The translations under genes were made by a program, and so were the position numbers. A stretch of DNA of 64,000 nucleotides from Stegostoma tigrinum (lineage: Eukaryota): the NCBI RefSeq assembly GCF_030684315.1, contig NC_081395.1, positions 5,648,478 through 5,712,477 of the forward strand, read 5' to 3'. Each line of letters opens with the position of its first letter. The stretch's first letter is position 1. Below, one piece after another: positions 23,866 through 63,059 of this stretch. The notes under the pieces are model-generated. The model had not been told where the DNA came from and did no database searches. It saw only the letters and a list, made by a program, of their open reading frames with translations.

Positions 23866-24100
23866 GAATCATAGACTTCCTACAGCGTGAGAGCAGGCCG
23901 TTCAGCCCTTTTGAGTCAATATCACCCCTCCAAAGAATATTCTATCCAGAGCCCCACCACCCTAACTTATAACCCTGTATTTCCCAATCCACCTAACCTG
24001 TAGATCTTTGAATTGAGAAGGAAACTGGAGCACATAAGAGAAGATCTGCACCGACACAGGGAAAATGTGCAAACTTCACATAGTCACCCAAGGGTGGAAT
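23866..24100 (-). mobile_element. HE1-like SINE fragment
   Basis: agaatcatagacttccctacag...ccaatccacctaacctg. Confidence 0.65.
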
Positions 24101-24149
24101 TTTGTTTGTTTTTCTTCAGTCATTCACAAGATGACCAGGCAACGTTTAT

Positions 24150-24527
24150 TATCTATGGTGGTGCATGACAGTAATACTAAATAAATGGGATTACCTCTCC
24201 AAGGCATGTGCGTAGCCAGCCAACAAGAACACATACTGGCAAGTGCAGACAGACCTGACACCACAACTAGACAACAAGATCCTCAACACACTTAACAGAC
24301 TCGAACAGATCAATGAAACAGACTTCCTAAGAATGAAACCTGAAGGAACCAACACACCCCAATTCTACAGCCTCCCAAAAGTACACAAATTGGAAGCACC
24401 CCTTGGACCCATAGTCTCCCTGCCAGGTACGCCATCACATAGATTAGCCAAGGAACTACAAAGGAGACTAAAGAACCTTGTCAACAAGTCACCCCATATA
24501 ATCCACTCAGCCCGAGAGTTCCTCAAC
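24150..24527 (+). mobile_element. Penelope-like reverse transcriptase fragment
   Basis: PQFYSLPKVHKLEAPLGPIVSLPGTPSHRLAKEL matches the PLE RT motif P.FYGLPK.HK...PLRPIVS..G.P...LAK.L. Confidence 0.8.
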
Positions 24528-26013: not shown

Positions 26014-26106
26014 GTGCTGTACATCCAGGCATTTGTCTTGGTCTTCCTCATCGGCAAGTTCATGCGGAAAGTGTTCTTTGGGCAGTTGCGCGCTGCAGAG
26101 ATGGAG
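26014..26106 (+). CDS. SYVN1: SYVN1 coding exon 2 (VLYIQAFVLVFLIGKFMRKVFFGQLRAAEME)
   Basis: 93 bp, bounded by cag and gtgagc. Confidence 0.95.
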
Positions 26107-28398: not shown

Positions 28399-28643
28399 GA
28401 CTAAAAACAGAAGTTGCTGGAAAAGCTCAACAGGTCTGGCAGCATCTGTAAAGGAAAAAACAGATAATGTTTCAGGTCCAGTGACCCCTCCTCAGAACTG
28501 ATCTGAGGAAGGGTCACCAGACCCAAAATGTTAACGTTTTTATTTTTCCTTCACAGATGCTGCTAGACCTGTTGAGCTTTTCCAGCAACTTCTGTTTTTA
28601 TTCATGATTTACAGCATCCACAGTTCTTTTGGTTTTTATTTGT
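28399..28643. mobile_element. Palindromic PLE-derived element (second family) in a SYVN1 intron
   Basis: About 100-bp inverted arms around the centre tcctcagaactgatctgagga; aattattgg direct repeat at 28390 and 28644. Confidence 0.75.
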
Positions 28644-29517
28644 AATTATTGGAAGATGCTCCTTGACACTGACTGAGACTTCCCTCCAGGCTTCATACAA
28701 TCAGAAAAATACATCTAGCATATTATTACACACATGGCTCTTAACTCACTCCAGTGGCAATTTGAATTTGTTTCTCATTGCTTTATTCACTTCATGCTGG
28801 GACTGGAGGTAAAGAAATGTTTATGTTCACCACAACCTAGATGTCTTTGTTTGTGAGTCATTCAAAGCTGGTGCTTTAAGCAGTCAGACAAGGGGTATAT
28901 TCACCATTAATGCTAAAACATCCAAGTACAGGAGTAGAGCTGACTTGGCGCAGTCGTGCAATGCCTTGCTGTGACTGTGCAAAGTTTCCCAATGTTCCGT
29001 CCCCATCAGTCAGCTAAGTGGGCTGAAGGCCATCAAAGTACACCTGTTCCAGTGAGGGAGCAGTCTTCCATTTTGGTATTAATCCATTGACTCTCAACGT
29101 GCTGACTGTGGCTTGTTCTGCACTGGTGCGGCAAGCAATTAAGGCAACTAGTGTATTGGCTGTTTTATTACAAGGTGGGTTTGTGTACCTGATGAAAGCT
29201 GTCTTACTGCAGGTTTAAAGAGTGTTGTGTACAGATACACTTTTCTAGGTATGCTTGCTTTCACGGGAGTGCAATGGAAGTTCAGTAGACTGATCCCTGG
29301 GATGATGGGATTGTCCTTGAGGAAACTGTGCCTCTAATTGCTGGAGTTTATAAGAATGAAAAGTGATCTTGTTGAAGCATACAAAATTTTTACGGGGGCC
29401 CTGACAAAGTGGGCGCAGAACGGATGCTTCCTGCTGATTGTGAGGGTGTTGAGGATCTCTTTCATTATTTAAAGATACTTGGATTTTCTAAAGCTGTTTC
29501 CATCCTATCTTCCGCAG

Positions 29518-29670
29518 CATTTAATCGAGCGTTCCTGGTACGCTGTTACTGAGACCTGCCTGGCTTTCACCGTCTTCCGGGATGATTTTAGCCCACGCTT
29601 TGTGGCCCTCTTCACCCTGCTGCTCTTTCTCAAGTGCTTCCACTGGCTAGCTGAGGACAGGGTGGACTTT
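29518..29670 (+). CDS. SYVN1: SYVN1 coding exon 3 (HLIERSWYAVTETCLAFTVFRDDF...HWLAEDRVDF)
   Basis: 153 bp, bounded by cag and gtaagt. Confidence 0.96.
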
Positions 29671-30394
29671 GTAAGTGTTTCTGGTGTTTCATGCTCCTGA
29701 GCTGCTGATGAATTGGGCGTTTGTGTGCTGTGAAGTGAAAGTTGCAAATGTGAATCAGGCTGCCCGTGTGCTCGTGGTTTGCAGCTATTCCCTCCCTACT
29801 GACTGATCATGTCTGACACGATCAGGGGGAGTGGAGGGGGACACGGTTGATGGGTCATTGCTCTGCCTGAAAGAGCGGTGGTAGCAGATCCGGTGGAACT
29901 TTTCAAAACGGGAGTTTGGATAAATACTGGGAAGGGGAGAAACTGCGGACCCACAGTGGAGTGGGAGAAAGAATGGGATTGCAGGGATAACTCCTTAAGG
30001 CTGCACAGGCATGATGGCCTGAATGGTTGTCTTTTTGGTGTAGCAGCTGCTTGCTAGCCTGGATTGTCAGGGAGGCTTAGTTTTGTCCTGATCGATCCAA
30101 ATGTTAAACCACTCATTGTTTCTGTGCGATGCATTGCAACAATGTGATGGCTTACAGTAGAGGCTTCGGTTTCTGAGATTGGTGCTTCCAATTTTCTTCC
30201 AACTACTTTCTTAGTCCAAGCCTTGGGCTTGTCACTGGCTTTAAGCAGAATAGAAAGAAGGGTCTTCCCCCAACTCGGTCTTGCTCTCGCTCTCTGCACA
30301 GGGGAATGGAACACTTCCAAGCATCCACATTGCCCCTTTCTTTAGCTTATTATTAATAAAGCACTCCCAGAGTAGCGTGGCTTATACACATTAT

Positions 30395-30520
30395 AGCTCT
30401 GTCTACTCTCTCTTCATCTGACAGTAAAGCTTCCCCCATTTAAACCCTCCCAGGACAAGGACAGCACAGGGTTAGATACAGTAAAGCTCCCTGCGACTGT
30501 TTCAGTCAAAAGCTCATCAG
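30395..30520 (+). repeat. Decayed shark satellite-like repeat (acagtaaagctccc...cccaggaca..acagcacagggttaga)
   Basis: Two partial units; a reverse-orientation relative lies at about 33785-33895. Confidence 0.5.
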
Positions 30521-30789
30521 CATCTGCCATGTCCTACAGCAGTCACATGAAGTAAGGTTACTAATTCGGGGTAGCTTTATGCTGTGAGCTTGTTCCTGCT
30601 AAGGCTGGGACTCTGTTAATTCATTCCATTGAGATCCCAATGTCAGCAGACAATGGGTTTGGATGCTAGCCCAGGAGAATAGAGACCAGAAGTCTTGCCC
30701 ACTGTCAGCTTGTTTTGTGTGCAGCATTGCTGTGTCGCAGATTGTGTGCACGTCACCTGAACACATTCCTGTTTTTTGTTTCTGCACAG

Positions 30790-30838
30790 ATGGAGCGGAG
30801 TCCAAACATCTCGTGGCTTTTTCACTTCAGAGTTGTCT
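30790..30838 (+). CDS. SYVN1: SYVN1 coding exon 4 (MERSPNISWLFHFRVV)
   Basis: 49 bp, bounded by cag and gtgagt. Confidence 0.93.
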
Positions 30839-33800
30839 GTGAGTATTGTGCCTCATGGTTAAGTGAAAGCTTCACATCATTCTTGAGTTTCATGCCATCT
30901 ACGTTTAGTCCAGTGAGGGGAACAGATGTTACCTGTGTCGTCAGCTTCTGTGAACAAGATGATCCAGGAGAATGTGGTAGCACCATCCACTGAGGGGCTG
31001 AGGTCTTATTGGGATCTGGATCAGTTGTTCTGGAGCCAAATGATTTCCTCAAGCCCCGATTTTTAAGTAATTGGATCAAGCGTGTCCCCTTGCTCCAAGG
31101 CATCCCGAGAGAGAAGGGGAAAAGTTACTGCTGCTGCTCGTAATCAAGGCCACTTTCTGTTTCAATGAAATTGCCAACAAGGCCCTGCAATCTCATGTGA
31201 CAAAATGTGGAGTTGACGTGTTCGGTCCCCGTCGACAGTGGTGTTGACTTCTTGTTTGTCACTGCGCCAGCGTTTCTTATCTCTGTATCAATCTTTTCGT
31301 TCTCTGGCCTATAAATTCTAGTCAGGTCTCCGAAATCACTTGACTTGTAATTTTGTCACCTTATGATGACTTTGAGGTATTCCCAAAGCACTTTGCAGCC
31401 AGTTTTCGGAGGTAGGAGGTAATGCAAAGACCAATTTGCACAGAACAAGCTCTCTCAAATAGCAATGTGACCGTGATCCAAATTTTCTTTCCACGTATTA
31501 CATATTGGTTGACGGACAAGTATCGGAACAAGCCATTTGGGGAGTGGGGTGGCGGGGGGAGACGCGGATGCCCATGCTCAGCAAGCCCACTGCTGAGAAG
31601 GGCAAAGGTCACGGGCATTTGGGAACTCCAGCTGCAAACCCTGCCCCATCCTGGCTTGGAACTGTATCGATGGCTCCTTCACTGTCACTGGGTCAAAGTC
31701 CTGGAACTCCCTCCTGAACAGCAATATCTACCACTGACTGCTAATAGCAGTTTAGAGAGGATGTTCCACCACCTTCTCAGGAGGGCTTTGGGGCTGGATG
31801 TTAAATGTTGGCATCGCCAGCAATGCCCACATCCCACAATGGAATCTTTTTATTTGGCCTTGAGATCTTTAGCACCTACGTGAGATGGCCGAAAAGGTTG
31901 AACGCTCATCTGAACAATGGCACTTCTGACAGTGCAGTAGCTCATGGAGTTCTGCTCCGACTGTCATCCAAATTGATGTGTTTAGGTTTCTGGAGTTGGG
32001 CCTTCAGATTCCGATGATCAGCGAATAGCTGCCTTACAACTAACACTGAAGAGAATAGTTTCTGCGTAAAAGTCCCCGGTCCCCTCAAGTTCATTTACAA
32101 GAAGCAGATGCTGAGGATTTGCATAGACGTTACTAAATACTGAATTCAGGGACTTTCCCGCTCACTGCTCCACACAGCTGCTGCTTCTTCGAGCTGACGT
32201 GTCCTGTCGGTATTTGCCACAGCTTGTGGAGACTAGACCACTTGTTAAATCAGACGTCAAGGGAGCAGCCAGCCTTCTGGCGGCGCTGCTGCTTGTGCCA
32301 CCCTTTAAAGGAATACTATCTCTGCCATCTCTCTCGGCTTGTAAGCTGCTGACCTCTCCAAATCACTCTGTGAACTGTAAAATGAAAGGAATTAGAATCT
32401 ACAGGACAAGAAAAGCAGATTACATTGTGTGAATGGTCGTATATGATATTCGTGTATGGTATTTGTCTAAGGAAGGATGGCCTTGCCATAGAGGGAGAGT
32501 GCAGTGAAGATTCACCAGACCAATCCTAGACCAAGGGTCTAGAGTGGGGAATTGTTTGAGTTGCCCATTGGTGAAGTGTTGTTAGTTGAACACAGCAGTT
32601 TCCGCAATCAGTCATGGCCTCCATGCTCATAGCAACCAGAGAAGATAATTAAGTGTCTCATAAAAACCTTTGAGTGAAAGTGAAAACCTGTTATTCAGTG
32701 AAGTGTAGAAGGGAAAGTCAGATCCCGCTATAATCAAAGGCTTAAGTAATTGCCGTTATGTATTGTACGTATAGGTATCCTGAAATTATAAGTGTAACTA
32801 ACAAACTAACATCCTTTCTGCAAATTGCTGTAGATAGATAGAAACTTGACATATCATCAGGGGCTATTGAAGAACCATTAGTATAAACGCTGAGGGCCTA
32901 ATGATGTTCAATGAAAGCTATAAACAGAGAACCTAATAAAAGAACACCGGAAAACAGCATTGTAAGGGGGCAGTTGTGAAGCATTACATAGTTCTTGTGA
33001 CGGGAAAATAATTGCAGCATCGCTAGATTAAAAAAACTGTTCCCATTCAGGATGGTGCAGCTGGTGTCTGGGGAGGTGGCAAGTGCTGGTGTTGATGTTG
33101 TGAGACCATTTTATGGTGGAATGTATACATTTCCTGCTGGGAGGGTTGAGAGTAGTGTCTTGCAGTCTGTTTCCAATGATCTCTTCCAGGTTGTGTTGTC
33201 AGATGCTCTGAATAAAGATTGATTTTTGTGCTGCTGAAAATGGGACTAAGACTCCTTTAACATCCCTCTCCCACAGGGTGGCAGGATCAGTGAGGAGAGG
33301 GTGATGAAATTTAGCCCTGATTTTCTGGACTTGTAAATAATGAGGTCTGATCTCTGTGAAACTTCTTAAATTCCTGCAGGTTTTGCATGTGGGTGTGGTG
33401 GCTGGTGATGCTAGCATCAGAGGATGCTGTCGCAGGATATGTGCTAAACCACTTAGGGTTGAGATGAGGAATTTCTTCACCTGAGACAGTAGTGAAGTTT
33501 TGTAAATCTCACCCTAGAGGAATGTGGTGACTCAGTGACTCTGTACATTCAGAACAGGGTCTGATAAGCTCACATCAGGAGATTGAAGGTCAAGCGGGAA
33601 AGTGGCACTGGGGGATTCGTTAGCTGTGGTGTTATTGAATGCTAGAGCAGGCTCACTGGGCTGATTGGTGTCCTCCTATCTCTGAGTTGAAATGCACTGC
33701 ACAGTATGTATTGGGAAAGATGTACATGTTACACTTCTCAATGGGATGTGCTATTCTACATCAAATCTAATCTTAGCAGCTTCTGCCCTGGGAGTCCAGA

Positions 33801-34019
33801 TGGAGCTTACTTTGTCTAATCCCAAACTGTACCTATCCTTGGATTATCTGAGTGGGTCACTGTTGAAGGAGCTTTACTCTGCCTCTAACTCTGCAATGAA
33901 ACTTATTCTCGGAATGTGTTTTATGCTGTCCTGCAGTGGAATGAGCTTCACTTTCAGTATCCAGATGTTCATGCTTGGGATTTTAAAGCAACATCTGTCT
34001 GTCTGTCTTTCTCTTGCAG

Positions 34020-34123
34020 CACTGACAAGTTTACTGGCTGTGTTGGATCTGTTGTTTGTAAACCATGCCTGTCACAGCATCATGACTCGGGGAGCATCTG
34101 TCCAGCTGGTGTTTGGCTTTGAG
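34020..34123 (+). CDS. SYVN1: SYVN1 coding exon 5 (LTSLLAVLDLLFVNHACHSIMTRGASVQLVFGFE)
   Basis: 104 bp, bounded by cag and gtgagg. Confidence 0.95.
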
Positions 34124-35244
34124 GTGAGGATTTCCTCTTAAGGATATGTGGGGTGACAGTGGTGAATGATTAATGTACTACAAACAGGGAATGAATTCTT
34201 TTTTCCTTTTGGACGTTTTCTTTTCCTCTCTTGGAAGTAGTAATACTGACATAACCATGGTCCTGCTATTTACCTGGTTACTGGGGAATAAACACTGTGG
34301 ATTCTCCAACCTGCCCATAGACAACCATCAAAGTACTAAGTGCCATTCTTCAAGAGGAGATGACACTGTTGGCCAATACAGACAGAGAATTAAACAATTC
34401 AGCCCCTATCTCTACCTTTAGATCTTGTTCACCTTTTACAATACAGCCGACAACTGGACTGTAAGTAAATGTTCAGGTACAAAATCTTTAACCTGGGATG
34501 TGACCTTGAGAGCACATTACAGGCTAGGAATCCTGCAGTAAGGGAGGATTACCTTTTACCTCCTGACTCTCCAAAGCCTGACCTCCATCTACAACACAAG
34601 TCAGGTGTGTAATGGAATGCTGTCTGTCTATCGGATGAGTATACCTCCAAAAACACTGGAAGCTTGACACCATCCAGAACAAAGCAGTCCAGTGGACTGG
34701 CACCTTGTTCGCTACCCTCGGCATTCACTCCCTCTACACTGACTCTCAGCAACAGTATGTATCGTCTGCAAGTTGAAACACTGCAGGAACTCACTAAGGC
34801 TCCTTTTTAGCAGAATATTCCAAATCAGCCAGCTCTGTCAACAGGAAGGATAAGAGGGGCAGATCCATGGAAACGCCACCTGCGAGGTCCTTTTTGACCT
34901 CACCAGCCTAACCTGGAAATATATTGCCATTTCTTCTTCAATGCCACTGAGTGAAAATCCTACAATTTGTTTCCTTACAGTGCTATAGGTCTCCTATACC
35001 CAGCATTTCAAGAAAGCAGTTCACCACCGTCACCTTCTCTATGGACGATAACCGCAAGCCTAGCTAGCAATGCTCTGAAATTGCCGGTGATCCTGTCAAT
35101 TACCCTTTGCCAGTTATTCTGGTTACGCAGCGGATGGCAGATACTGACAGTGGTATAAGTTGGGATAATGAGATTCTTGGCAGTGGTGGTGATGCCATGA
35201 TTGTAGGGATAATGCTTTAACCTCTGTTCTGTGTTCACTTGCAG

Positions 35245-35371
35245 TATGCCATTCTCCTCACCATGGTGCTGACCATAGTCATCAAATACATTCTGCACAC
35301 TATTGATCTTCAGAGTGAGAATCCCTGGGACAACAAGGCTGTGTATATGCTGTACACAGAGCTCCTGACAG
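35245..35371 (+). CDS. SYVN1: SYVN1 coding exon 6 (YAILLTMVLTIVIKYILHTIDLQSENPWDNKAVYMLYTELLT)
   Basis: 127 bp, bounded by cag and gtatgg. Confidence 0.95.
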
Positions 35372-35652
35372 GTATGGACAGCAGTAAAAATGAGGGAGTG
35401 ACCAGACAGGCGAGGTGGTTGGGGTGGCTTGTAAAATTGCTGGGTGTGAGATGTATGGCAATTCTTGCTGTTCTTCCATCAAGACTCTGAAAGGGCGAAT
35501 GTGTTCTGAACTCTGATAGAACGCAGTGAAGACCAGCTGCTAACTTCCATCCTGGGTGTCCTTTGCTTAATTCCATGCTGTCGTATAATGTCATCTGCCT
35601 TGTGGTGCATGGCTGCTGCTCTTGTCAAAGCTGATCTTTCCATCTGTTTCAG

Positions 35653-35752
35653 GCTTCATTAAGGTGCTGCTGTACATGGCCTTCATGACCATAATGATCA
35701 AGGTTCACACGTTCCCTCTGTTTGCCATCCGTCCCATGTACCTGACCATGAG
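35653..35752 (+). CDS. SYVN1: SYVN1 coding exon 7 (FIKVLLYMAFMTIMIKVHTFPLFAIRPMYLTM)
   Basis: 100 bp, bounded by cag and gtgagt. Confidence 0.95.
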
Positions 35753-35979
35753 GTGAGTCCTTGCATGAGAAGGAAGCGGTATTTAGTCGTCCCCCCCCAT
35801 CCTCCTGCACAGGTAGTCTCAAATGATGACAGCAGCAGCTCCTAGGTGACGGGTGTTTCTGGAGAAACTTGAGTTTTCAGCTGCTGGGCAAGTTTGGGTT
35901 AGAAGTTGAGACTCTGGCATCAAGGTCAGATTTCTTAACGGTTTAGTGTTGCTATGTCAAAGCAACACACTTCATGTGT

Positions 35980-36540
35980 CATAGTCATACAGCATAAAAA
36001 CAGACCCTCCAGTCCAACCAGTCTATGCTGACCATGTTCCCAAATAAACTAGTCCCACATGCCTGTGCTTGGCCCCTATCCCTCAGCCTTTCCTATTCAT
36101 GTACTTATCCAAATGTCCTCTGAACGTTGTGACTGTACCTGCATCCACCACTTCCTCTAGAAGTTCATTCCATACACGAACCATTTTTTTTTTTTGGGGG
36201 TGGTAGGGGGGGATGGGCTGACCCTCCAGTCCTTTAAGTCTTTTTCCTCTCACCTTAAAATGTATCCTCCAGGCTTGAAATCTCCCAACCCAAGGAAAAG
36301 ACCTTTACATCTTATCTATATCCTCTCATGATTTTATAAAATGTCTACAAGGTCACCCCTTCATCTCTTGTACCCTGGTTAAAAATGTTCCTGGCCTATC
36401 CAGCCTCTCCTTTATAACTCGAGCATCCCAGTCCCGAAAACATCCTGGTAAATCTTCTCTGAACCCTTCTCAAGTTTAATAATATCTTGGCTACAACAGG
36501 GTGAGCAGAACTGGGTACAATACTTCAGAGGAGGCCTCAT
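35980..36540 (-). mobile_element. CR1/HER1-like LINE 3' fragment
   Basis: Reverse complement of the LINE tail seen at 41730-42220. Confidence 0.75.
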
Positions 36541-37097
36541 CGGTATGCCTCTCTTTTTGAGCTGCAGTGACGTTAGCAAGTGCTGCCAACAACTCATAGG
36601 CACAACAGGATCGCACCTCACCCCTGCCAAACTCGTCAACCAGATGAATTTATCCAGTTAACTGAGGGAAGAATGTTGACTTTAGTGACCAAGGCAACCC
36701 CTGGCTCTGGGCAGTTCCGAGACGTAGGGTACTTTAAAAGAAATTTCAGAGAAACCACTTCAAAAGGTTGGAATAAAGTAATTCGGAGGGAAACTGAGGA
36801 ACGAATCACCTTTTTGGGTGCAGGGTATTACAGAAGCCTTCCCAAAACACGACTGGAAATCAGACTTGGAGAAGGCAAGCTGTCTGGACCAAGTCACGTT
36901 AAACATGTCGAAATCCCCTGTGTCAAAGGCTCCCACCCACCTCCCAACCAACAAAAAAAATGCCTAATTGCTGCCAGCTTCCCTCTGCTCAGGTCAAGTG
37001 GCTGTGTTCTGAGTGCTGAAGTGCAAAGGGGCTGATGTTAGAACAAGAGCTTGTGACGGTCGTACAAACCTAATTATCTCCTTGCCTCCATTTCCAG

Positions 37098-37163
37098 GCA
37101 ATTCAAGAAGGCAGTGACCGATGCCATCATGTCCAGACGAGCTATTCGCAACATGAACACGCT
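37098..37163 (+). CDS. SYVN1: SYVN1 coding exon 8 (QFKKAVTDAIMSRRAIRNMNT)
   Basis: 66 bp, bounded by cag and gtgagt. Confidence 0.95.
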
Positions 37164-38424
37164 GTGAGTACTGAGCTTGGTGACCTTGCTTCCATTCACT
37201 CACCCTTTTTGATTGTCGTCCTGTGTAGCATTTGGCAGAACTTTGTGTGTGATCTTTTGCTGTTCCCCCTTGTTTGTTTTTATTTGTTCTTGGGATTTGG
37301 TTGTCACTGCCTGGGCCAGTATTTATTGGCTGTTCAGAAGGTAGTGGGGAGTTGTCATACTTAACCATAAGCACCAAGAACTGCAATTCAGGAGGGAGTT
37401 CCAGGAATTTGACCCAGAGAGACTGAAGGAATGGCCCATATGGTTGCAAGTCAGCATGGTGTGTGGCTTGGAGGGGAATGTGCAGATGGTGGTGTTCTGA
37501 TGAATCTGCCGCCCTTGTCCTTGGACACAGAGGTTGTGGGTTTGGAATCTGCTGTCGCAGGAACCTTGAGGCTGCAGTGCATCTTGGAGATCATACAATG
37601 CTGTGCCTGTGCCAAGTGACAGAGGGAGTGAATAATGAAGGTTGGCAATTAAATTCCAGACAAGTATGGATTATTCCATTGCACTCCAAATGAGTGCCTT
37701 GTAGATGGTGGGTGGGCTTTGGGAAGTCAGGAGGTCAAAGCTGTTCATGCAGAAATTCATTTCACCTGGACTTCACCTTGCTAGGCTATGAGTTGCTCCT
37801 TGCTGCATTTAATAAAATATGTTGTTCTTTATCCTATTTATGCTTCTGCAAAGCCTTAAGTCTGTGTTCCCAAGATCTTGTTCCTTGTCAATGGACGCAG
37901 CTTTACTTTGTCTACTTTCTGTACCCATGTCCTATTCTTCAAGAAATCTCCTCCTTTCAGTATCCTTTTTTCTCCATGGAGAACAGTCCCAAACATTCCA
38001 GACCACCTCATCAGCCCTGGAGCCACGCTGGTGAATATCCTCATGTCCTTACTGAAGTGTGGCGAACACAACTCGGGTCAATGCTGTTACTGGCATCTAA
38101 GTGAAACTTTATATCCTGAAATACAATACCTTCCCTGCTATTGGCCTGATAACTTGTACGTTTTGCTGAAGCCTCCCTCAACTGGACTTGTCACCCACTT
38201 TGTACTAGCAAATATATGTTGCCAGCATCACCTATGCTGTATCATTGGAACCTGAGGGTTTGTGGTCACTACTCTTAGCCATGGGAGCACAGCGTCCACC
38301 CTCTGTCTCCCTTGTCCTCCTGCTCGTGCTCTTTGGAATGTGACTCTCTGCACCAAGTCTGTTGTGATGTGCTAAGCACCCCCCCCCCCCCCCACCATTA
38401 TCTTTATCCGTTTGTCTCTGGCAG

Positions 38425-38541
38425 GTATCCTGATGCCAGTCCAGAGGAACTCCAGCAAACCGACAACGTCTGCATCATTTGCCGTGAGGAGATGGTGACT
38501 GGAGCCAAACGCCTGCCGTGTAACCATATCTTCCACACCAG
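38425..38541 (+). CDS. SYVN1: SYVN1 coding exon 9, first half of RING-H2 (YPDASPEELQQTDNVCIICREEMVTGAKRLPCNHIFHT)
   Basis: 117 bp, bounded by cag and gtgagt. Confidence 0.96.
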
Positions 38542-39937
38542 GTGAGTGAAGCTGAGAATAGCCAATCTGCAATATTTCCTCCATGTACAAGTGGGACAAA
38601 TCCAGGGCTAGACAGGGTTTAAAATTAATGAACCGTTCTGTCGAGCAGGTGGATGAACACCAAAACAAAGCTTAATCTTTTAACGTCTGGTAAATTTTAG
38701 ATTGCCTTTGGAATAGACGTTTCTCATCCAACCACCCACCCATCTGCCTGTGTAGATCAAGGTTAAAGGTTCAGTGGAGAGATCCCAATAGATCTCCAAT
38801 TGGCAATTGTTCTTCTAATCAATTCTAAACTCTCCCATGCAGAACAAAAGATAACATTTCTCTGGATAAGACTTAACCCTGTAGAGCAGAGTTGAAGAAA
38901 TTTCTTGACTGAGTGTTGTGGTTCCCATCATTGCTTCTTCAAAACAGATGGATTGACTGTCTGGTGCTATTGTAGAACTGATGGATAGTTGGCAGAATGG
39001 AGTTCAAGTAGAAGAACAGCTGTGATTTCATTTGAGCAGTGGCATAGGCTGAATGGCCTTCTGCTCCTACTTCTCTTGCCCTTAGCTACTTTTTTCCCCA
39101 TCCATCTAATGCTGTTTGTTCTGTGTCCCGTCGACGCCAGTGGTTCACCCCAAGGAACTTGCTTTTCTCTCTGCCAAGCAATGAACTTTAGCATGAAATT
39201 TGATTAGTGCAGAGACTTGTAGCCTTCACTTGATCCTCTCCTTCCTGCATATTTCCACTTGTCCACTGGAGCTCCACAAAGCAGTTAGTGCTTTGATGCA
39301 GGGCCTGTGACTGGTTTACTTTTCATTCCTTGGCCCTTCAAAGCTGTTTGCGTTGCACACTTGGCATTGCCATGTGCCTTGTCTCTCCATGGTGGAGTCC
39401 TTTCCTGCCTCAAGATTGCAGGTTCAGGCTTCACTCAAAGGTTTGCAACCATCCTCCAACCCGACACTCCATGTCTTTCAGATGAAATTAAAACCAGTTT
39501 CAATCTGAGCCTCTCGTTAAGACAATCTTTTTATTAATATAAAATAAAAACAGCGACCGTGTATTCCCTAGTGCCCAAAGCGCAATATTTCTCGAGCAAA
39601 ATCACCCCTCGAGATGGATGAGTTGGACCGAAGGGTCTGTTTACTGTGCAGCATATCTGACTGTAAATATCACTGCGCTAACGCCAATGCAGCCCCCCCC
39701 CCCCCCCCAACCCATCCTCCAGTCCTGCACCACATAATTACAAGCCAGCTGTGGTTGCTGCCCGGTTCTGCCAGGAATCTGTCGGGTCTGTGTGTTGTGT
39801 ACTATATGTTCTCCCACAGCATGGACGTGTGCATTTCGCCACCTGTTTTCCCTGTACGTGGCGTCACCTCTCCACGCCTGCTAGCTACTAACGGTCATCT
39901 TTTCTTTACCCTCTTCTCCCCCCCCCCCCCCCCACAG

Positions 39938-40083
39938 TTGTCTCCGCTCCTGGTTCCAGCGGCAGCAGACGTGCCCCACGTGTCGCATGGATGTCCTGCG
40001 AGTTACGCCCCCCGTGCAGACGCCACCACAGCAGCCTCAGCCGCAGGTGCCGCAGACCCCCCTGGTCCCCCAGCAACCCAATC
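39938..40083 (+). CDS. SYVN1: SYVN1 coding exon 10, second half of RING-H2 (CLRSWFQRQQTCPTCRMDVLR...)
   Basis: 146 bp; poly-C tract then cag; donor gtgagt. Confidence 0.95.
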
Positions 40084-41639
40084 GTGAGTCGCAACCTAAA
40101 TCCGTCCGCTCCCCTGCACCACCTACACTTTTTCTACCTGCAACCAATAAAGCTTTGCACTCCACTGCAGGTTGGACGTACCAGCCTTGGAGCTTGGCTT
40201 CTCCAGAATAAATCTGGCACTAAACGCACTGAATTATTTTTGCTGTTTGTTTTTAAAAAAGATCAGTTGAAATTACAGACCAAATGACTGACTTCTGCAC
40301 TGTAGCAGTTCTGAATTCTATGAATATTCGAGTGGGTGTTTCCCTGGGTATCGGAGCTTAAAGACACGGTTGGATTTGAGATGAGGATGATGAAAGAGTT
40401 CACGGGGAACCTACTTCCACCTGGTGTTTGGGGTCCCCAAAGAGAGATCCCAGAGCAAAGGTGACAGCACTTTTTTTTTTGTAAAACATCCAAGCCAAGC
40501 TGTCTGCGGAAACTGTTGAGACCAAGTGGTGAGTGATTGGAAGTGTCACATTGGAGATTGATTTACTATTTCCTGCTTAAAGTAAGGGATATTTTAAATG
40601 AACCAGGGTGTGGAGAATTGCTTTCATTGAGTGCATTGTGGTCAGGCTGCCTTGGTGGAAGCAGATTCAACAGGGGATTTCAAAAGGGGAAATCAGCAGG
40701 ACTATGGTGTGGATTGGTAGTGGGGGTGGAGCAGTGAAATGTTACTCCTCGTATTTCTCTTTATTATTTCTTCAACATGCTCGTGACTGGCAGGCCAGCA
40801 TTTGTTGCCCAGCCCACTATGCCTTTTGAGCTGTGCTTTACTCCGCCATTTCAGAGGGCAGTTAAGAGCCAACTGCACTGCTGTGGGTCTAGAGTCACAT
40901 GAGGATAGGTGGTAGATTTCCTTCCCTAAAGGACTTTTGTAAAATTCCATTTGGTTTCCAGAAGTTGACAGAAGCCATGTGGTTGCCATTAAGTTTTTTT
41001 TTTTAAAATTTCAGGTTTCCATTAAACTACATTATTTGCCATATGGCAGAATTCAAATGCATGCCCCCAGTAATTTTCTTTCACACTTGGGATGAATCCC
41101 TAAATTAAAACTCATAGCTGTATATATTTTCTCAAGTACGAGAGAACTTGACTATCCAAAGTAGCTTCAATGAGATAGCTGTAAAGACGTCCTGGGGAAA
41201 GTGGGGTGCTATGGAGTAATTGGGGAAGGCGGGTGAGAATTAGTCTTGAAGGATCCCCTGGAAGGAATCACAGCAGGAGGGGAAGGGCTGTGGTGTTTGA
41301 AACTGGAAGGGCTGGGAGCTTTTGCTGCCATCATCATTAACTCAGAGTATGAAATACATAGCACAGGTTGCACTATATAGCAGTGGTCCCCAAAAGCTTG
41401 TGTTTATATTGCCCCTATTACAACCACGGTGCATCCCAAAGTGCATTAATAACATGTTTCAATAAATCATGTCACTTGTAGGAAACACAGAAGATTCGGT
41501 GTAGTCAGCAGTGAGATAAGCGACCTAATGACATAATGTCAGTCCCTGCTTGCTTAAACAATAAGAATGATTGCAGCATCAGCTGATCAGGACAGTGGGG
41601 ATAATCCCCTCCAAACTAGCACCCACCTGCACAACATTT

Positions 41640-48823: not shown

Positions 48824-49003
48824 NNNNNNNNNNNNNNNNNNNNNNNNNNNNNNNNNNNNNNNNNNNNNNNNNNNNNNNNNNNNNNNNNNNNNNNNNNNNN
48901 NNNNNNNNNNNNNNNNNNNNNNNNNNNNNNNNNNNNNNNNNNNNNNNNNNNNNNNNNNNNNNNNNNNNNNNNNNNNNNNNNNNNNNNNNNNNNNNNNNNN
49001 NNN
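48824..49003. other. Assembly gap (180 N) in the SYVN1 3' UTR
   Basis: Run of N characters. Confidence 1.
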
Positions 49004-54928: not shown

Positions 54929-55179
54929 CAGCTTTCCTGATGCTGCCTGGTCTGCTGTGTTCATCCAGATCCACACCTAGCACTAGGGATATTGACGAGA
55001 TGACTCGTCCAGATGTTTAGGTGACTTAGAATCAACTGATTTGCTTCTTGAAGACCTCTGAGGGTGCATTATTTAAACTCCCACACAAAGAAAAAAATTT
55101 TTAATTTGCAATAATAAGTCACAATAATGGGAAATGAATAATTGAAATTGGAACGATCCTGACTCAAGATGCAGAAGGC

Positions 55180-55760
55180 TACCCCTACGCTTTCCTCCCC
55201 TCCCCCCACCAACCGCTCACAGCAGTTTCCGGTTCCGGTGCCTCAGACGATGGTGACAGGAGTAATGGAGGCGGTGGACAATCCGTGGCTGGAACCCGAG
55301 CGGAATCCGCCGGCATCCGCTCCAACGAGTGGTGAGTGACCGCAGTCCTGTCACCGATAGTGAGGGAACGAGCGGACCGTTTGAATGGCACCGATATTGA
55401 CCGGAGAGGAGGGGGGGGACGGGGAGCGCGAACGATGGCGGATGCGGGAGAATTGTCACCGACGCCGAGGAAGGGGCGGGGGATGTGTGGGTCGCGGGGT
55501 GGTGGTGGAAAATGGACGCCTGCCGCGTCGGCAGGATACAGTTGGAGGTGGGATGTGGGAGAGAAAGAGACGGAGACCCTTCCTGTAACAGCTCCCTCTT
55601 CCCCCGGTGTCCGCCCCCGAAGTCGAGCTGGAAGAGTCGCTTGTAATGGCGGCGAGGAACAGCCGGCGGGGGCGACCAGCGCGTGCGTAGAGCTGGAGTC
55701 TGGCTGGTGGCGGGGGATTTGGACGGGAAACAGACCCGGATGGGAACCAGGAAGTGAAGT
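55180..55760 (+). promoter_or_regulatory. CpG island promoter / first exon region of the PRPF39-like gene
   Basis: CpG-rich; tandem TTCCGG ETS-like sites at about 55227-55238; donor G|gtgagt at 55331/55332. Confidence 0.75.
55250..55331 (+). CDS. PRPF39: PRPF39-like coding exon 1 (MVTGVMEAVDNPWLEPERNPPASAPTS)
   Basis: Two in-frame strong-Kozak ATGs (55250, 55265); the phase-1 donor gtgagt joins in frame to the acceptor at 60712. Confidence 0.7.
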
Positions 55761-56089
55761 CAAATGCCCCCCCCAGTGCTCAAAGAGAAGGGAATAGATG
55801 TAACTACAGTCCCTTTCTCCACGTCGAGGGGATTGGATATAAACGACCTGCCCCGATGGAAGGACATGGATGTAATGACCATCTCCACACAGAAAAGATG
55901 TAACTCAGAAAAGGGAATAGTGTATCTATCATCTCCCTTAGGCAGAGGCGTGTATATGTAACTATACCCCTCTGCACCCCCCCTTTCCCAATAGGGATTG
56001 CTACATTTCACTACCATGCTGCCCCCCCCCTCCCCGTGCCCCAGAGGGAAATAGATATAACTGTCTTTCCAGTAGAGTGAAATAGATGT

Positions 56090-57697
56090 GATAATGGGAA
56101 CTGCAGATGCTGGAGAATCCAAGATAATAAAGTGTGAGGCTGGATGAACACAGTAGGCCCAGCAGCATCTCAGGAACACAAAAGCTGACGTTTCGGGCCT
56201 AGACCCTTCATCAGGGAGGGGGATGGGGTGCGGGTTCTGGAATAAATAGGGAGAGAGGGGGAGGCGGACCAAAGATGGAGAGAAAAGAAGATAGGTGGAG
56301 AGGAGAGTATAGGTGGGGAGGTAGGGAGGGGATAGGTCAGTCAGGGAAGACAGACAGGTCAAGGAGGTGAGATGAGGTTAGCAGGTAGGAAATGGAGGTG
56401 CGGCTTGGGGTGGGAGGAAGGGATGGGTGAGAGGAAGAACAGGTTCTCCGCCTCCGTCGCATCTGCTCCCACTATGAGGCATTCCACTCCCGCACATCCC
56501 GGATGTCCAAGTTCTTTAAGGACTGCAGCTTTTCCCCCTACAGTGGTCGAGAACGCCCTCGAACGCGTCTCCCGCATTTCCCGCAGCACATACCTCACAC
56601 CCTGCCCCCGCCACAACCGCCCAAAGAGGATCTCCCTCATTCTCTCACACCACTCCACCAACCTCCGGATACAACGCATCATCCTCTGACACTTTCACCA
56701 TCTACAATCCGACCCCACCACCCGAGACATTTTTCCATCCCCACCCCTGTCTGCTTTCCGGAGAGACCACTCTCTCCGTGACTCCCTTGTTCGCTCCACA
56801 CTGCCCTCCAACCCCACCACACCTGGCACCTTCCCCTGCAACCGCAGGAAATGCTACACTTGCCCCCACGCCTCCTCCCTCACCCCTATCCCAGGCCCCA
56901 AGATGACTTTCCACATTAAGCAGAGGTTCACCTGCACATCTGCCAATGTGGTATGCTGCATCCACTGTACCCGGTGTGGCTTCCTCTACATTGGGGAAAT
57001 CAAGCAGAGGCTTGGGGGCCGCTTTGCAAAACACCTCCGCTCAGTTCGCAATAAACAACTGCACCTCCCAGTCGCAAACCATTTCCACTCCCCCTCCCAT
57101 TCTTTAGATGACATGTCCATCATGGGGCTCCTGCAGTGCCACAATGATGCCACCCGAAGGTTGCAGGAACAGCAACTCGCATTCCGCTTGGGAACCCTGC
57201 AGCCCAATGGTATCAATGTGGACTTCACCAGCTTCAAAATCTCCTCTTACCCCACCGCATCCCAAAACCAGCCCAGTTCGTCCCCTCCCCCCGCTGCACC
57301 ACACAACCAGCCCAGCTCTTTCCCTCCACCCACTGCATCCCAAAACCAGACCAACCTGTCTCTGCCTCCCTAACCTGTTCTTCCTCTCACCCATCCCTTC
57401 CACCCACCCCAAGCCGCACATCCATTTCCTACCTACTAATCTCATCCCACCTCCTTGACCTGTCCATCTTCCCTGGACTGACCTATCCCCTCCCTACGTC
57501 CCCACCTATACTCTCCTCTCCACCTATCTTCTCTTCTCTCCATCTTCGGTCCGCCTCCCCCTCTCTCCCTATTTATTCCAGAACCCTCTCCCCATCCCCT
57601 TCTCTGATGAAGGGTCTAGGCCCGAAACGTCAGCTTTTGTGCTCCTGAGATGCTGCTGGGCCTGCTGTGTTCATCCAGCCTCACATTTTATTATCTT
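56090..57697 (+). mobile_element. 5'-truncated Penelope-like element with GIY-YIG endonuclease remnant and inverted pseudo-LTRs
   Basis: ORF 56903-57373 (FTCTSANVV..I.C..CG.LYIGE.KQRL..RF..H...LGTLQPNGIN); about 56120-56445 is the reverse complement of 57372-57697; TSD tagagtgaaatagatgt at 56073-56089 and 57697-57713. Confidence 0.9.
57604..57631 (+). ncRNA. Minimal type-I hammerhead ribozyme-like motif in a PLE pLTR (copies also at 53909-53936 +, 54273-54300 +, 54831-54858 -, 56187-56214 -)
   Basis: CTGATGA-A-GGG(TCTAGG)CCC-GAAA-CGTC: complete hammerhead core with a palindromic ACGT helix III. Confidence 0.65.
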
Positions 57698-58801
57698 AGA
57701 GTGAAATAGATGTACCTGCTTCCCGAGTGAAGAGAAATAAATGTAGCTCTCTCGTTTCCCCTCCAATAGTGAGTAATTCCACCTCCACAGAAGGGAAGAG
57801 ATGTAACTTGCCCCTACCTGCCTAAAGGGGAATAGGTGTTGACTGGTCCCCAGCCCTGTAGAGGGGAATGTCTGGAACTACCTGCCCCACAGAAGGAAAT
57901 ATCTAACTGCCCACCCCCCCATTAGCAGGGAGTAGATGTACCCACTGCCCCATACTTGTAATTATCCCCTCATAGGCCCACAGAAGTGAATAAAGGTAAT
58001 TGCGCCCCCCCATCCCACCCCAATCACCCATCTGCAATGCAGAATCACAGAATTGTTCTGGTGTTGGAGGAGGCCATTCAGCCCACCATGTCTGTAGCAG
58101 CTCTGAATGAGCATCATGGTTTAGTGCTTTAAAAAAAAGACAGTGTTGGAGAAATGCAGCAGGTCTGGCAGCTCCTGTGGAGAGAGACACAGTGTGGACG
58201 TATCAAAGCCAGTATCGCTGCTCTGCAGAATGAATTGGGTGCTATTCTCCTGCCTTTCCCCTTTGACTGTAAACATTGAGATAATTGATAGAAACAATGT
58301 CAAATTGAATGCTTTGATTGTACCTACCTCCTCCATACCACTGCAAGTTATTCTCACACTTCATCTGTTATTTTAGTTCAAAACTCAAGCACCCCCTTCA
58401 TTCACTATATCCTTCAGTTCTCAGGAGTCCTGGGCTTCACAGCAATCCTGTTCCAAGCATTGCTCAAAACTCAAAATAAAACTGAAACCAGAAGTCTCCC
58501 TGTAAGTGATGGGTGTTTCTTTTGAGCTTAAAAAGCAAGTTTCAGAAGAAAACCTTGAAAGGCTCATTGTTTGCCTTGATGGGACACGAAACAAACTGAT
58601 CTACACAAACTTATTCACTCTAAAGCTAGGTCTCAAAAACTGTTTTAAAAGAAATCACCACAGCTACAGAAATACTTAGAATAAATAATTAACTTCAGAC
58701 ACTGAAAAACCCACAGGCTACCTACTCAAAAACTAAGCTCAAACTTATCTGCCTCCCCCGCCTCCATATTTATTTCAGAATCCCCTTCCCCTCCCCCATT
58801 T

Positions 58802-58829
58802 CTGAAGAAGGGTCCCGACCCGAAACATC
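58802..58829 (+). ncRNA. Variant hammerhead-like motif in a PLE 3' fragment (about 58750-58897)
   Basis: CTGAAGA-A-GGGTC(CC)GACCC-GAAACATC; stem II is preserved with a different sequence. Confidence 0.5.
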
Positions 58830-60711
58830 AAGCTTTCCTGCTCCTCTGATGCTGCTTGGCCATTTGTGTTCATCCAGCTTCACACCATGTTATCTCAAAC
58901 TTATGAAAATTGTTTTTAAAAATGTATCTGTACATAAATCACACAGTTCATATTCACAGTTCTCACTGAGGAGCAGAAGAAGCTGATGATCTGATGCAGC
59001 TTTGAGGGGGTGCTGTCTTGTTGAGGATGTTGTCAAGGAGTCAATATTGAGGAAATAGATGCTGTCAGGGAGCCTGTCAAGGGGCCTTCTCCATCTGAAG
59101 GGTCATCTTTTGGGCTAGACAGAATCTCCATCTGCATATTTGAGGTGGATGTGAAAAACCCCACTGCCACTATTTTGCACATATGGAGAACAACTCTACA
59201 TGATGTACTGAGGCCAATTTGATCCCACAAACAGCAGCATGATAAAATGATCTGGTCATTACTACTTTGCTGCTTGTGAGGCCTACGCAAATTGAATGTT
59301 GGTTTCTTACATTTCAAAACCAACTACACTTTAAAGTACTTCACTGATTGTAAAAAGTTTCTGGCGTCTGGTCATCGTGAAAACTGCTGTGAAGCTGTCA
59401 GTCTTTCCCCATAGTGCTGGCGACATTCTGTGAGCTACTAGTCTGTCACCAAAGGTCTTATTGTGAGGTGATTAAATTCAGATTTTTGTGTTAAGAGGAT
59501 ATTGGCCTCTCATACAATCGTTGCCTTTAAAGTTTGCACCACTTTCTGCCAATACTTGCTAGCAACGGAACTGAGGCTCCCTGATGCTGGAATAAGTCTG
59601 CATAATCCCACAAAACCTTGATTTCTTGTTTTGAGTCTTGAGCTACCTTCTCCAGGATTTTTATAACTTGGAATTTGGTCCTACTTTCAATTTCACTCAC
59701 CAGCCTTTCTGTAACTCGCTATTGATTGTGACATTGCCCATAATCAAGTATGACAGCTGTAATACAATGCCTGCATGGGCTGTTGGCTATTTTTAGTTTA
59801 CACCTCATGTTTAATTTGATTCAACATAATTCAAATCTCTATTGCTTGTGTCCTAACTTGGTCTGAGTCCCATACATCTGTCTCCCTTGTGAAAGTTGAT
59901 CTACATTTGTTCAGAGCTAAGCAATCCTTTTTTAAAATCCCTGTTTTTCAGATTTTTCCATGAACTTGCTCCCTGCTCTTTCAGTAATTTCCTTTAGCCC
60001 TAAAGCCACCCACAGACACTAGCTCCCCTGCCCCCAAAGAAATAGTCTGTGTGTTACAGTAACTCTGGTTTCTAGAGCATTCTGCATTTCAGTCACTGTT
60101 TCATTGGCAGTTATGCATTCAGCTACCAGGATCTTGAGCTCTAAAATTCCATTAAGACTCCCCTTAAGTCCAGCTTTATCCCAGCATTTGGTGATCTAGC
60201 CTATTGCCTCACTGTAGGCCTGATATCAAATATTGTGAATACTTAGAAAATGCCTTGGGGTATTTTTAAAAACTTTCTTTCACCAGGTGTGAGCAGCGTT
60301 TGTTGCCTGTCCCTAATTGCCCTGGACAAGGTCGTGTTGATCCACTGTCTCGAAACTCCTTGGGGTGAAGAAACACCCACAATGCTGTTAGGAGGGAATT
60401 CCAGGATTTTGACCCAGTGACATTTGAAGGAATGGAGATACATTTCCAAGTCAGGATGGTGTGTGGCTCAGAGAGGAACTTGTAGGGGATGGTGTTTTCA
60501 AACGGGCGTTGTTTCTGTTGCTGTAACTTCCTTGTTTTCCCAAGGTAAATTTTGGAACTGAACATTGTGTCAGAAGCATGGAGCATCCCGAATATTTTCC
60601 TTCCACATTGAACCAGTTCTCACTGTCGTTAACCCCTTTGGAGCCGAGACCTGTGATTGTTTATCACTAACTGAGTCTGTGTGCATTAACATCTTCCCTT
60701 TTCTTTTGCAG

Positions 60712-62228
60712 ACAATGAGCAGAAATTATTAAACAAAAGCCGCCGAGTTAGGAGCAATCAGTGCATCACGCAGGATGTGTCCACTCGGCCCCTAAGCCTG
60801 CGCGTTGATGAGACTGCTGTGGAGGAGGCCTCCGCCGACAGCCCAAGCCCCTGTGACGGAGACACCGGAGAAGAATCAGCAGCTAGTACTCCGGCACCAA
60901 GTGTCGGGGACACCGGAGAGGAGCTGGCGGCGGATTCCACCGCAGACACTGGCGAGGAGTCTGCAGCTGATTCCACTGGTCCCAGTGACGGAGACTCTGG
61001 GGAAGAATCAGCAGCTGATTCCACGGGACCCCATGACACAGGAGAAGAGTCAGCCGCAGATTCCACGGGCCCAAGCGATGGTGATACTGGAGAGGAGTCA
61101 GCAGCTGACAGCCCTGCTCCCTGTAAAATCGACAGACTACTGGATACGGCGGCTGATTCCACTGGCCCAAGTGACAGGGACATTAGGGAGGAGACAGCTG
61201 CAGACAGCCCTGGCCCGTGTGATACGGATAGTATAGAGCAGGCGGCTGCAGCTAGCCCTGGTCCCTGTGATGGCGACACTGTCGGGGAGACTGCTGCTGA
61301 CAGTCCTGGTCCCTGTGACACAGATACCATGCAGCAGGGCACTGCAGTTAGTCCTGGCCCATGTGATACGGACCCTGTGGGGGACACAGCTGCCGACAGT
61401 CCTGGCCCCTGTGACACAGACACCATCGAGCAGGGAGCTGCAGGTAGCCCTGGTCCCTGTGATACAGACACTGTCAGGGAGACAGCTGCAGGTAGCCCCG
61501 GTCCCTGTGATACAGACACTGGTGGGGACACAGCTGCAGCGAGTCCTGGTCCATGTGATACGGACACGGTGGGGGAGACAGCAGCTGATAGTCCAGGTCC
61601 CTGTGATGGAGACACTGTAGGGGATATGGCTGCAGATAGCCCTGGCCCCTGTGATACGGACACTGTAGGGGAGACAGCTGCCTACAGTCCTAGCCCACAT
61701 GACCGAAATGAAGTAGAGAAACTGGCTGCTGAAAGCCCCCGTCCGTCTGGTGTTCAGAGCACAGCAGGAGACCTGGCTGCAAGTCCCAACCCACCAAGCG
61801 ACCAGGACACGATGGCAGAGATGGAGATAGACGGGCTGGGTATGGACAGGGAAACAACAGAGGAATCGGAGATTGCCGAGTCCACGAATGCAGGCAGAGG
61901 TCAAGACACTGTGAGCGGACTGGCGGCTGACTCTTCGAGCGGTGCGACAGTGATGGAGGCAGCAATGCTGCTCCCTGAGAGCGCCAATGGGCCACAGCAC
62001 ACCATGGATAAACCGATCAGTTGTGACATTGCAGACTACATGGCGACAGACAGCACTGCCACTGGTCTGGATGTGTACGAGCAGGCCAGCGGTGATTACG
62101 GGGTCCTCGAGGCGGAGGACAGCATCCCACCGTACCCCACAGACTTTGAGAAGTATTGGAAGATAGTTGAGGACAATCCATACGATTTCACAGGCTGGAC
62201 TTATGTCCTGCAGTATGTGGAGCAAGAG
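60712..62228 (+). CDS. PRPF39: PRPF39-like coding exon 2: repeat-expanded acidic N-terminus plus start of the HAT region; the gene continues beyond the window
   Basis: Acceptor ttttgcag, 1517-bp open exon, donor gtgagg. It ends with YPTDFEKYWKIVEDNPYDFTGWTYVLQYVEQE, matching the PRPF39 motif FPPEYEKFWK.VE.NP.DFTGW.YLLQYVEQE. Confidence 0.88.
60831..61820 (+). repeat. Coding minisatellite, 48-bp / 16-aa unit, about 21 copies
   Basis: Consensus AADSPGPCDTDTVGET; two shortened units (12 and 14 aa); frame is preserved throughout. Confidence 0.92.
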
Positions 62229-63059
62229 GTGAGGTAATTTTTGTGTAGGTGTTACTGTGCTAGTGCACCTCCTATATCACTTGCCTTCCATTGCCCGTGC
62301 AATAAACCCCCAAAAACAGATTCATTAGGAGCACAAGTAGATAAGGTTCTGTTCTGTAGTTTTGTTTTCCAATACTGTGGTATTTTTAGCAGCGCTTCTG
62401 CAATGTGATACCTTCTGTGCAGTGATGTGGAGCTGTAAAGTGAGAGAGTGACATGACACCGGAACAAGTGGGTACTAAGCAGGGATCGGAGACGGTGTTT
62501 AGATTGTGACTGGTGCTGGGTTCTGAAGAGGATTTTGAAGCAGGGCTGGTGGGGTTGTGGCTAGAAATGATGTGCGTGAGTATGTCTAGTGATTAATATC
62601 GTGCAGTGGGAAGTGTATTCAGAGCAAAGCAGAATTGGCAAGATTTTGACAATCTGTTGAAGAACAGAGCTGTGGAGAGGAGACTGCGCGGGACAGGGAC
62701 TAGAACATTTTTGAAGTTGATGCATCAGAGTGCCTGCAGGATAGTGAAGGGCTGTGAGGGCAAGGACTGTGACTTGGAACAGGCTAGCATCTTGGTTGGA
62801 GGCATCCAGGATGAGTTGCAAGTTGTATGGGAAGGAAATCTGGAGGTCAGCAAGGGAAACTGTGGCAGAGATCTTGTCTGGGTGTGACAATGAAAACTTC
62901 ATTAGAGATTAAATTAGTGATAGAAATAGGTGGCAAGGATATGGGCTGTTGATCCTCTCTGAGGCTGGAGGAGGGATAGAGTGTTGAGATGTGATGTTTC
63001 TCATCCAGAGAAAGGAGGATGACAGCACTGGATGCTCTGTGGGGTTTCCTATTGATGCA

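Follow-up and report, generated by a model that had tools for sequence, protein, structure and literature searches.

In the zebra shark (Stegostoma tigrinum), one long exon on contig NC_081395.1 encodes a tandem array of 16-aa units ahead of the first HAT motif of a protein that resembles the U1 snRNP factor PRPF39. This raises the questions of whether the array is a genuine part of the expressed protein, to which gene it belongs, whether its amino acid sequence is maintained by selection, and what such a tail might do beside the HAT domains. We find that the array is real, expressed and selected, and that it sits on a vertebrate PRPF39 paralogue that is annotated but, in the literature searched, undescribed; that search, made mostly without subscription journals, returned no description of a PRPF39 paralogue in sharks or of the repeat. 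All coordinates are positions in the window, which is the whole 64,000-nt stretch of the contig that was analysed.

The array exon and its transcripts

The array is carried by exon 2 (60712–62228, + strand), which has 1517 bp and is open throughout; a pyrimidine tract and AG border it on the 5′ side and GTGAGG on the 3′ side. The coding part of exon 1 (55250–55331, +; 27 codons plus 1 base) lies inside a CpG island, starts at an ATG flanked by A at −3 and G at +4, and ends at a phase-1 donor, GTGAGT. Joining the two across intron 1 (55332–60711, +; 5380 bases, GT..AG) gave 533 codons with no stop, and the product was identical at 533/533 positions to residues 1–533 of XP_048380976.1, the zebra shark PRPF39-like protein of 1106 aa. 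Bounds, frame and protein match all agree with the 1517-bp open exon proposed in the initial annotation. The end of exon 2 (62148–62228, +; donor GT at 62229) encodes the start of the PRPF39 HAT N-terminal domain, as indicated by a profile match (Pfam PF23240, E = 8.6e-06; 26.4 bits, slightly below the 27.7 cut-off) and by a match to the mouse structure 6G70 (E = 1.3e-09). The remaining gene 3′ of exon 2 was not located within the window, which ends at 64000. Stops in each of the two remaining plus-strand frames led us to reject an alternative reading frame.

We compared positions 55150–62400 with contigs from four of the 14 listed runs (X11, X13, X1 and X7), the types of which are unrecorded or guessed; X11 and X13 belong to one study, possibly the source of the window itself, and X1 to another study and organism. 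We relied on joints and bridging contigs alone, leaving aside contig depths and intron bins without coverage. The joint 55331→60712 was found in contigs of both studies, with one contig each in X11, X13 and X1 and with 100, 74 and 111 letters, respectively, on the shorter side. Exon 1 was covered from 55231 (X11) and 55220 (X1) to 55330 and was joined there to exon 2. Exon 2 was spanned by single gap-free contigs of the same three runs, which displayed no differences from the window in X11 and X13 and 72 differences without gaps in X1. The match of these contigs stopped exactly at 62228, beyond which they ran on (the X11 contig has 4836 letters). Run X7 gave three pieces on exon 2, with no joint among those listed.

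None of the 15 joints listed enters exon 2 internally; 105 further joints exist, and contigs drop rare variants, so rare internal acceptors may occur. The exon 2 acceptor has pyrimidines at 17 of 20 positions, and internal AGs reach at most 14. The Chiloscyllium punctatum gene model (P0012) has another first exon and keeps the entire array, and the Heptranchias model (P0008) begins at a Met within it. We rejected an assembly artefact, given that the X11 and X13 contigs show no difference from the window and that five carpet sharks have a co-linear array. The array exon is thus real, spliced in whole and in frame.

Two further features of the region were recorded. Intron 1 contains a mobile element (56074–57713) of ~1.6 kb. 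Its inverted arms are ~330 bp long and 93–95% complementary, direct repeats of 16 bp bound it on either side, and it contains a frame of 227 aa in which Cys pairs and YIGE occur; the element presumably resembles a truncated Penelope-like endonuclease fragment. An assembly gap of 180 bases (N) lies at 48824–49003, outside the finding on the array gene.

The PRPF39-like paralogue and its HAT body

The initial annotation had contrasted the repeat tail with the short N-terminus of mammalian PRPF39. A search with the HAT body recovered shark and ray PRPF39-like proteins at 86–100% identity and a second shark set of 712–729 aa at 64–65%. In a tree of 61 rows, canonical PRPF39 (100/100) and PRPF39-like (100/98) were separate, with lamprey and hagfish outside both, and the PRPF39-like clade comprised sharks, rays, coelacanth, amphibians, reptiles and birds. 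In a quick tree of 36 rows, the second copies of bichir, sturgeon, gar and bowfin joined the like side, and all five mammalian rows (5/5) were canonical. The zebra shark itself has a canonical PRPF39 (XP_048393290.1) on a different contig, with 342/537 identical positions in the HAT body. By this placement, the window gene is an old jawed-vertebrate PRPF39 paralogue in the clade sister to that of mammalian PRPF39, to which it is not orthologous; the same species has a separate protein of the mammalian clade. The contrast with the mammalian N-terminus was therefore drawn against the wrong gene, and sharks keep a canonical, short-tailed PRPF39. Neither mammalian nor teleost rows were found on the like side of the 61- and 36-row trees, whose rows were picked from the best 120 of 693 and 120 of 174 matches together with cluster members, suggesting that PRPF39-like was lost in mammals and teleosts.

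Within the window, the PRPF39-like gene comes after a Speedy-family gene and SYVN1. Exons of the Speedy-family (Spy1) gene (3031–8025, −) and of SYVN1/HRD1 (20299–40208, +) flank a CpG island at ~17500–19000, and the two genes are probably arranged head to head; a C-rich tandem repeat of 80–84 bp (19045–19322, ~3.3 copies) lies between this island and the first SYVN1 coding exon. Both are ordinary genes, usable as synteny markers. In human, SYVN1 and SPDYC map to 11q13 and PRPF39 to 14q21, regions that the early vertebrate genome duplication paired, and we infer that PRPF39-like arose in that event.

The folded HAT part of the protein looks functional. In the full-length model (P0017), helices extend over residues 504–1036, and the best PDB match is 6G70 (E = 1.3e-39); the HAT body compares with mouse PRPF39 in that structure at TM 0.94, rmsd 2.8 and 61–62% identity. 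Both the N- and the C-terminal HAT domains have the PRPF39 fold, according to the model and to PF23240/PF23241 assignments precomputed on relatives. The charged residues R458, R464, E576 and D577 (mouse numbering, checked on a 665-aa rodent protein), which were tested for dimerisation in mouse PRPF39 (PMC6582350, in part), are kept in 34/34 like-clade proteins. The position of Y536 is Phe in 34/34 of these proteins, and replacement of Y536 by Trp in mouse PRPF39 is described as having no effect (PMC6582350, in part).

A heterodimer predicted for the zebra shark C-terminal HAT domains scored 0.79 against 0.00 for the best control, a result that shows likeness and not binding, since the structure of a similar complex (6G70) is known and close relatives also pass the test. 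Contact agreement was at least 93% and pLDDT at least 87; the mark was reached by 51/78 solved versus 2/108 mismatched pairs (39/65 versus 2/126 for eukaryotes). The interface of PRPF39-like is predicted from this model to be compatible with canonical PRPF39. In the cited papers, metazoan PRPF39 is treated as a single-gene homodimer that replaces yeast Prp39/Prp42 (PMC6582350, in part). We saw a second PRPF39 gene in cartilaginous fish, non-teleost ray-finned fish, coelacanth, amphibians, reptiles and birds; with its intact dimer face, this gene opens heterodimer formation to direct test in cells of chicken or lizard. Databases already list it under the name 'PRPF39-like', and repeat tails specific to one lineage are nothing unusual.

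Constraint and distribution of the repeat units

The array consists of 21 in-register 16-aa units at 60831–61820 (330 aa), for which TRF gave a period of 48 nt, 10.6 copies and 72% matches. The earlier count of about 21 in-frame copies therefore stands; the exact consensus, however, occurs in only 1/21 units, and 11 units outside the core match it at 4–10 of 16 positions. The array begins with eight older, degenerate units, mostly of the AADSTGPSDGDTGEES type (60831–61196, +), of which units 1–2 have 16+16 aa. One of the eight is shortened by 4 aa and one by 2 aa, and the unit alignment confirmed the earlier observation that these are the only length changes and that the frame is kept. Ten core 16-aa units follow (61197–61676, +), each with SPGPCD, as defined by translation, repeat finding and codon comparison, and then three degenerate closing units (61677–61820, +), recognised, like the first eight, from translation and unit alignment. 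S-P occurs in 15/21 units, and S-P together with T-x-x-D/E in 11/21, so the pairing that had been ascribed to most units is present but in barely half of them. The regularly spaced Cys, likewise, holds for 10/10 core units but for 12/21 overall, for 71% of 153 shark units and for 5/15 units in Mustelus.

A MEID motif (61821–61832, +) stands at the array end, and beyond it lies a non-repetitive, fast-evolving acidic linker (61833–62129, +). MEID resembles the motif SP...M[DE]x[DE] in the tails of both paralogues, which we counted in 32/64 canonical-type and 12/57 like-type tails against shuffle expectations of 1.7 and 0.6, with clades assigned by a rough marker and the tails otherwise unalignable. 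SP...M[DE]x[DE], on which the shark array ends, could be a short linear motif of old origin that has gone undescribed. The repeat tail is predicted to be disordered: residues 1–495 of the P0017 model lack secondary structure and have pLDDT values nearly all below 50, which may also stem from poor alignment of repeats. The disordered scaffold on a PRPF39-type HAT protein envisaged in the initial annotation is in line with this prediction. The net charge is −86 over 487 residues of the tail and −16 for the HAT body.

The effects of selection were apparent in several comparisons. In the core, the codons of SPGPCD gave a pN of 0.00 and a pS of 0.56 (six codons, 45 pairs from ten units; pairs within the array are not independent), in agreement with the earlier remark that SPGPCD stays intact while third positions vary. 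Whole core units gave a pS of 0.53, a pN of 0.16 and a dN/dS of 0.20, again from non-independent pairs, and the variable columns numbered 7, 6 and 14 at the three codon positions. Among the 72 exon differences between the window and X1, the 18 listed (60794–61145) comprised 15 synonymous and 3 replacement changes (dN/dS ~0.06, p = 5e-7). We used the acidic linker as an internal control. The array (residues 67–348) and the linker differed at 8/282 versus 14/104 positions in Rhincodon (p = 2e-4) and at 18/282 versus 31/104, 17/282 versus 33/104 and 16/282 versus 31/104 in three hemiscylliids (p ≤ 1e-8), all four comparisons sharing the window's branch. The array thus differs by 3–6% between species and the adjacent linker by 13–32%, a rate ~5x faster; the HAT body differs at 6–16 of 540 positions between carpet sharks. 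Since unit-specific variants stay in position across the five carpet sharks, this conservation does not reflect homogenisation, and gene conversion was rejected as its cause. The difference between array and linker indicates that the array is, at the sequence level, under purifying selection.

The presence and copy number of the array among chondrichthyans, which the initial annotation had left to be checked, separate sharks from rays. The motif P[CSNHG][DE]x[DEN][TSA] occurs in 6–35 copies in 13/13 sharks, including Heptranchias and Pristiophorus, and in 0–2 copies in 8 rays and skates, which retain the gene. A profile of 153 units from 7 shark species had G6 at 88%, P7 at 92%, C8 at 71% and D9 at 95%, followed by G10 at 63%, T10 at 19%, D11 at 86% and T12 at 79%; positions 4–9 of this profile are partly fixed by the anchor pattern, and D11 and T12 are not. 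Positions 13–16 vary by lineage, and D11 and T12 persist. Recent runs of identical units, 11 in Carcharodon and 8 in Heterodontus, show continued unit turnover in other sharks. Comparison across the sharks sampled shows an array that is conserved in sequence and free in copy number.

Outside the sharks, like-clade tails are ~76–113 aa long in coelacanth, non-teleost ray-finned fish and sauropsids. Together with the 0–2 copies in rays and skates, these short tails mark the array as dispensable for the core role of the paralogue. Amphibian like-clade proteins carry tails of 858–1112 aa at the same place with unrelated sequence (P0109, P0100, P0110, P0115 and P0116), so bulk of any sequence is tolerated there. 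The caecilian PRPF39-like tail has its own 18-aa repeat in 13 copies, and salamander tails are mostly non-repetitive; one eel duplicate of canonical PRPF39 (P0107, P0108) has an acidic, Gln-rich, partly repetitive tail of ~400 aa. Rays and sharks have urea/osmolyte physiology in common; a link between this physiology and the array was dropped since rays share it and yet lack the array.

When the core array was searched against 1.84 billion representatives, 31 matches resulted, and those viewed included no other named family with the repeat. The top match was the shark family representative, and 18 of the 19 viewed among the other 30 were unrelated periodic repeats without GPCD. One unnamed 160-aa protein on an ENA contig (P0150) has six GPCD units of 14–15 aa and no HAT domain; its units likely represent convergence or a spurious frame. 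The best score in a comparison with the ESM Atlas, 0.82, was at chance level.

Possible roles of the tail and known systems

Our best explanation, which we give about an even chance, is that the tail is a disordered array of short low-affinity motifs for avidity docking of a nuclear protein partner beside the HAT body. Constrained uncharged residues, free copy number and disorder together form the pattern expected of such an array. The core motif GP[CS]DxDT, usually with S-P before it, would serve as the binding unit, its ligand would be a protein, and many weak motifs would dock this nuclear partner by avidity. The HAT body is predicted to dimerise and would act on U1 snRNP like PRPF39, so that the tail might take part in 5′ splice-site choice. 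Human PRPF39 binds the C-terminal domain of U1C, joins U1 snRNP and promotes the use of weak 5′ splice sites (PMC5648754 and PMC9808567, each in part), and by analogy the action of the shark HAT body at U1C and weak 5′ splice sites would be carried over from it. Docking could be tuned by proline-directed phosphorylation at S-P and by CK2-type phosphorylation at T-x-x-E. The sequence [ST]Px[KR] is absent from 12/13 sharks and occurs once in one, and Px[ST]P is absent from 13/13; having neither a basic residue at +3 nor Pro at −2, the S-P sites are minimal kinase sites only. A bolder proposal, which we consider unlikely, is that non-mammalian jawed vertebrates have mostly re-evolved a yeast-like two-subunit PRPF39 dimer, in which the tail of the second subunit in sharks, a selected array of up to ~35 phospho- and Cys-bearing motifs, would equip U1 snRNP with a multivalent, CTD-like arm for recruiting a partner and would tune splice-site choice by lineage.

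Somewhat unlikely, but the most serious of the rivals, is a tail that works as bulk polyanion or spacer, so that solubility, nuclear-speckle partitioning or competition with RNA for a basic HAT surface would depend on charge and length and not on a motif. The charge of −0.16 to −0.25 per residue in 13/13 sharks lies near that of the short canonical tails of sharks and primates (−0.15 to −0.20), and long acidic tails of unrelated sequence arose in the amphibian paralogues and in canonical duplicates of the eel. GC-rich RNA is a ligand of human PRPF39 (PMC9808567, in part), and disordered regions are a common product of long internal exons (PMC9825244, in part), as this reading would have it. 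Charge and length alone, however, would not account for the uncharged G6 and P7, which show no replacement in the ten core units while silent sites vary, nor for the ~5x faster change of the equally acidic linker next to them; in addition, the HAT body is itself net negative. The sharks and rays, with 6–35 and 0–2 copies, offer a clean natural series for distinguishing motif action from bulk-charge action of disordered tails.

We regard as doubtful the idea that the tail binds metal ions through its spaced Cys-Asp-x-Asp motifs, or that these serve as a thiol/redox buffer switching its state. Cys is invariant in the core units, D9 and D11 flank it, and shark tails have 10–35 Cys compared with 0–1 in canonical shark and primate tails. 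Conversely, Ser, Asn or His replaces Cys in ~29% of the 153 units, older Cys-free units are still constrained, and each unit has one Cys, without a CxxC pair or a predicted fold. With Cys in 71% of units and in 5/15 of those of Mustelus, a redox role is possible but not required.

It is improbable that the array arose almost neutrally, by replication slippage and unequal crossover within a disordered exon that tolerates such growth and in which only the frame is kept. The spread of copy number, the recent identical runs in Carcharodon and Heterodontus and the near absence of the array from batoids would fit such growth, but replacement changes are strongly depleted relative to silent changes and to the linker, and keeping the frame alone would not spare the G, P, C and D codons.

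The initial annotation had likened the units to FHA ligands and to the SDT repeats of MDC1, and in that reading they would be CK2 phospho-sites that bind FHA/BRCT proteins and link the factor to DNA-damage signalling. An acidic sequence context suits CK2, the FHA ligand consensus is pT-x-x-D, and the window exon has 8 C-D-T-D motifs and 9 TxxD. The likeness breaks down: SDTD is absent from 21/21 chondrichthyan tails, in which SDT occurs once (it is absent from the window exon), Cys occupies the Ser position, Gly takes the place of the D-T-D Thr in 63% of the 153 shark units, CDTD occurs 0–3 times in 6/13 sharks, and TxxD occurs only 1–2 times in 5/13. We therefore consider this reading very improbable. 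Least credible of all is a constraint on RNA, with the 48-nt repeats acting as splicing enhancers: a very long internal exon such as this one of 1517 bp needs exon definition, but the amino acids are preserved against a background of freely varying silent sites (pS 0.53 versus pN 0.16 in whole units), and the strong acceptor is matched by no internal AG with a comparable pyrimidine tract (17/20 versus at most 14).

Among known systems, metazoan PRPF39 shares with PRPF39-like the HAT fold (TM 0.94), the dimer residues R458, R464, E576 and D577, and an acidic disordered N-tail before the HAT domains, of which 73 residues are unresolved in mouse (PMC6582350, in part). PRPF39-like differs in forming a separate jawed-vertebrate clade, in having Phe at Y536 in 34/34 proteins, in its neighbours SYVN1 and the Speedy gene, and, in sharks, in its tail of ~500 aa with the 21-unit array. 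Eukaryotes without Prp42 are expected to form PRPF39 homodimers (PMC6582350, in part). Yeast Prp39/Prp42 resembles the vertebrate pair in having two paralogous HAT proteins per genome with compatible C-terminal dimer faces (predicted in shark); the duplications are independent, however, the vertebrate pair is still 64% identical, and its heterodimer is a prediction.

The array itself has Pro/Cys periodicity in common with Cornifin/SPRR (PF02389), to which it shows a weak match (E = 4.7e-06; 27.3 bits against a gathering cut-off of 34.8). SPRR repeats are Lys/Gln-rich, whereas the shark repeats are acidic and are fused to a HAT splicing factor. The SDT repeats of MDC1, CK2 sites that bind NBS1, likewise belong to a nuclear protein, where acidic Thr/Asp motifs recur within a disordered stretch, and in their S-D-T the Ser and the Thr are both phosphorylated (PMC2315670, in part); the shark array, in contrast, is a regular 16-aa tandem without S-D-T-D, with Cys where Ser is needed and with a Thr that is not conserved. 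Finally, the shark exon resembles the long internal exons described in PMC9825244 (in part) in that an elongated internal exon beside a folded domain encodes predicted disorder, and differs from them in that the addition in the shark is a tandem array of motifs whose sequence is strongly constrained.
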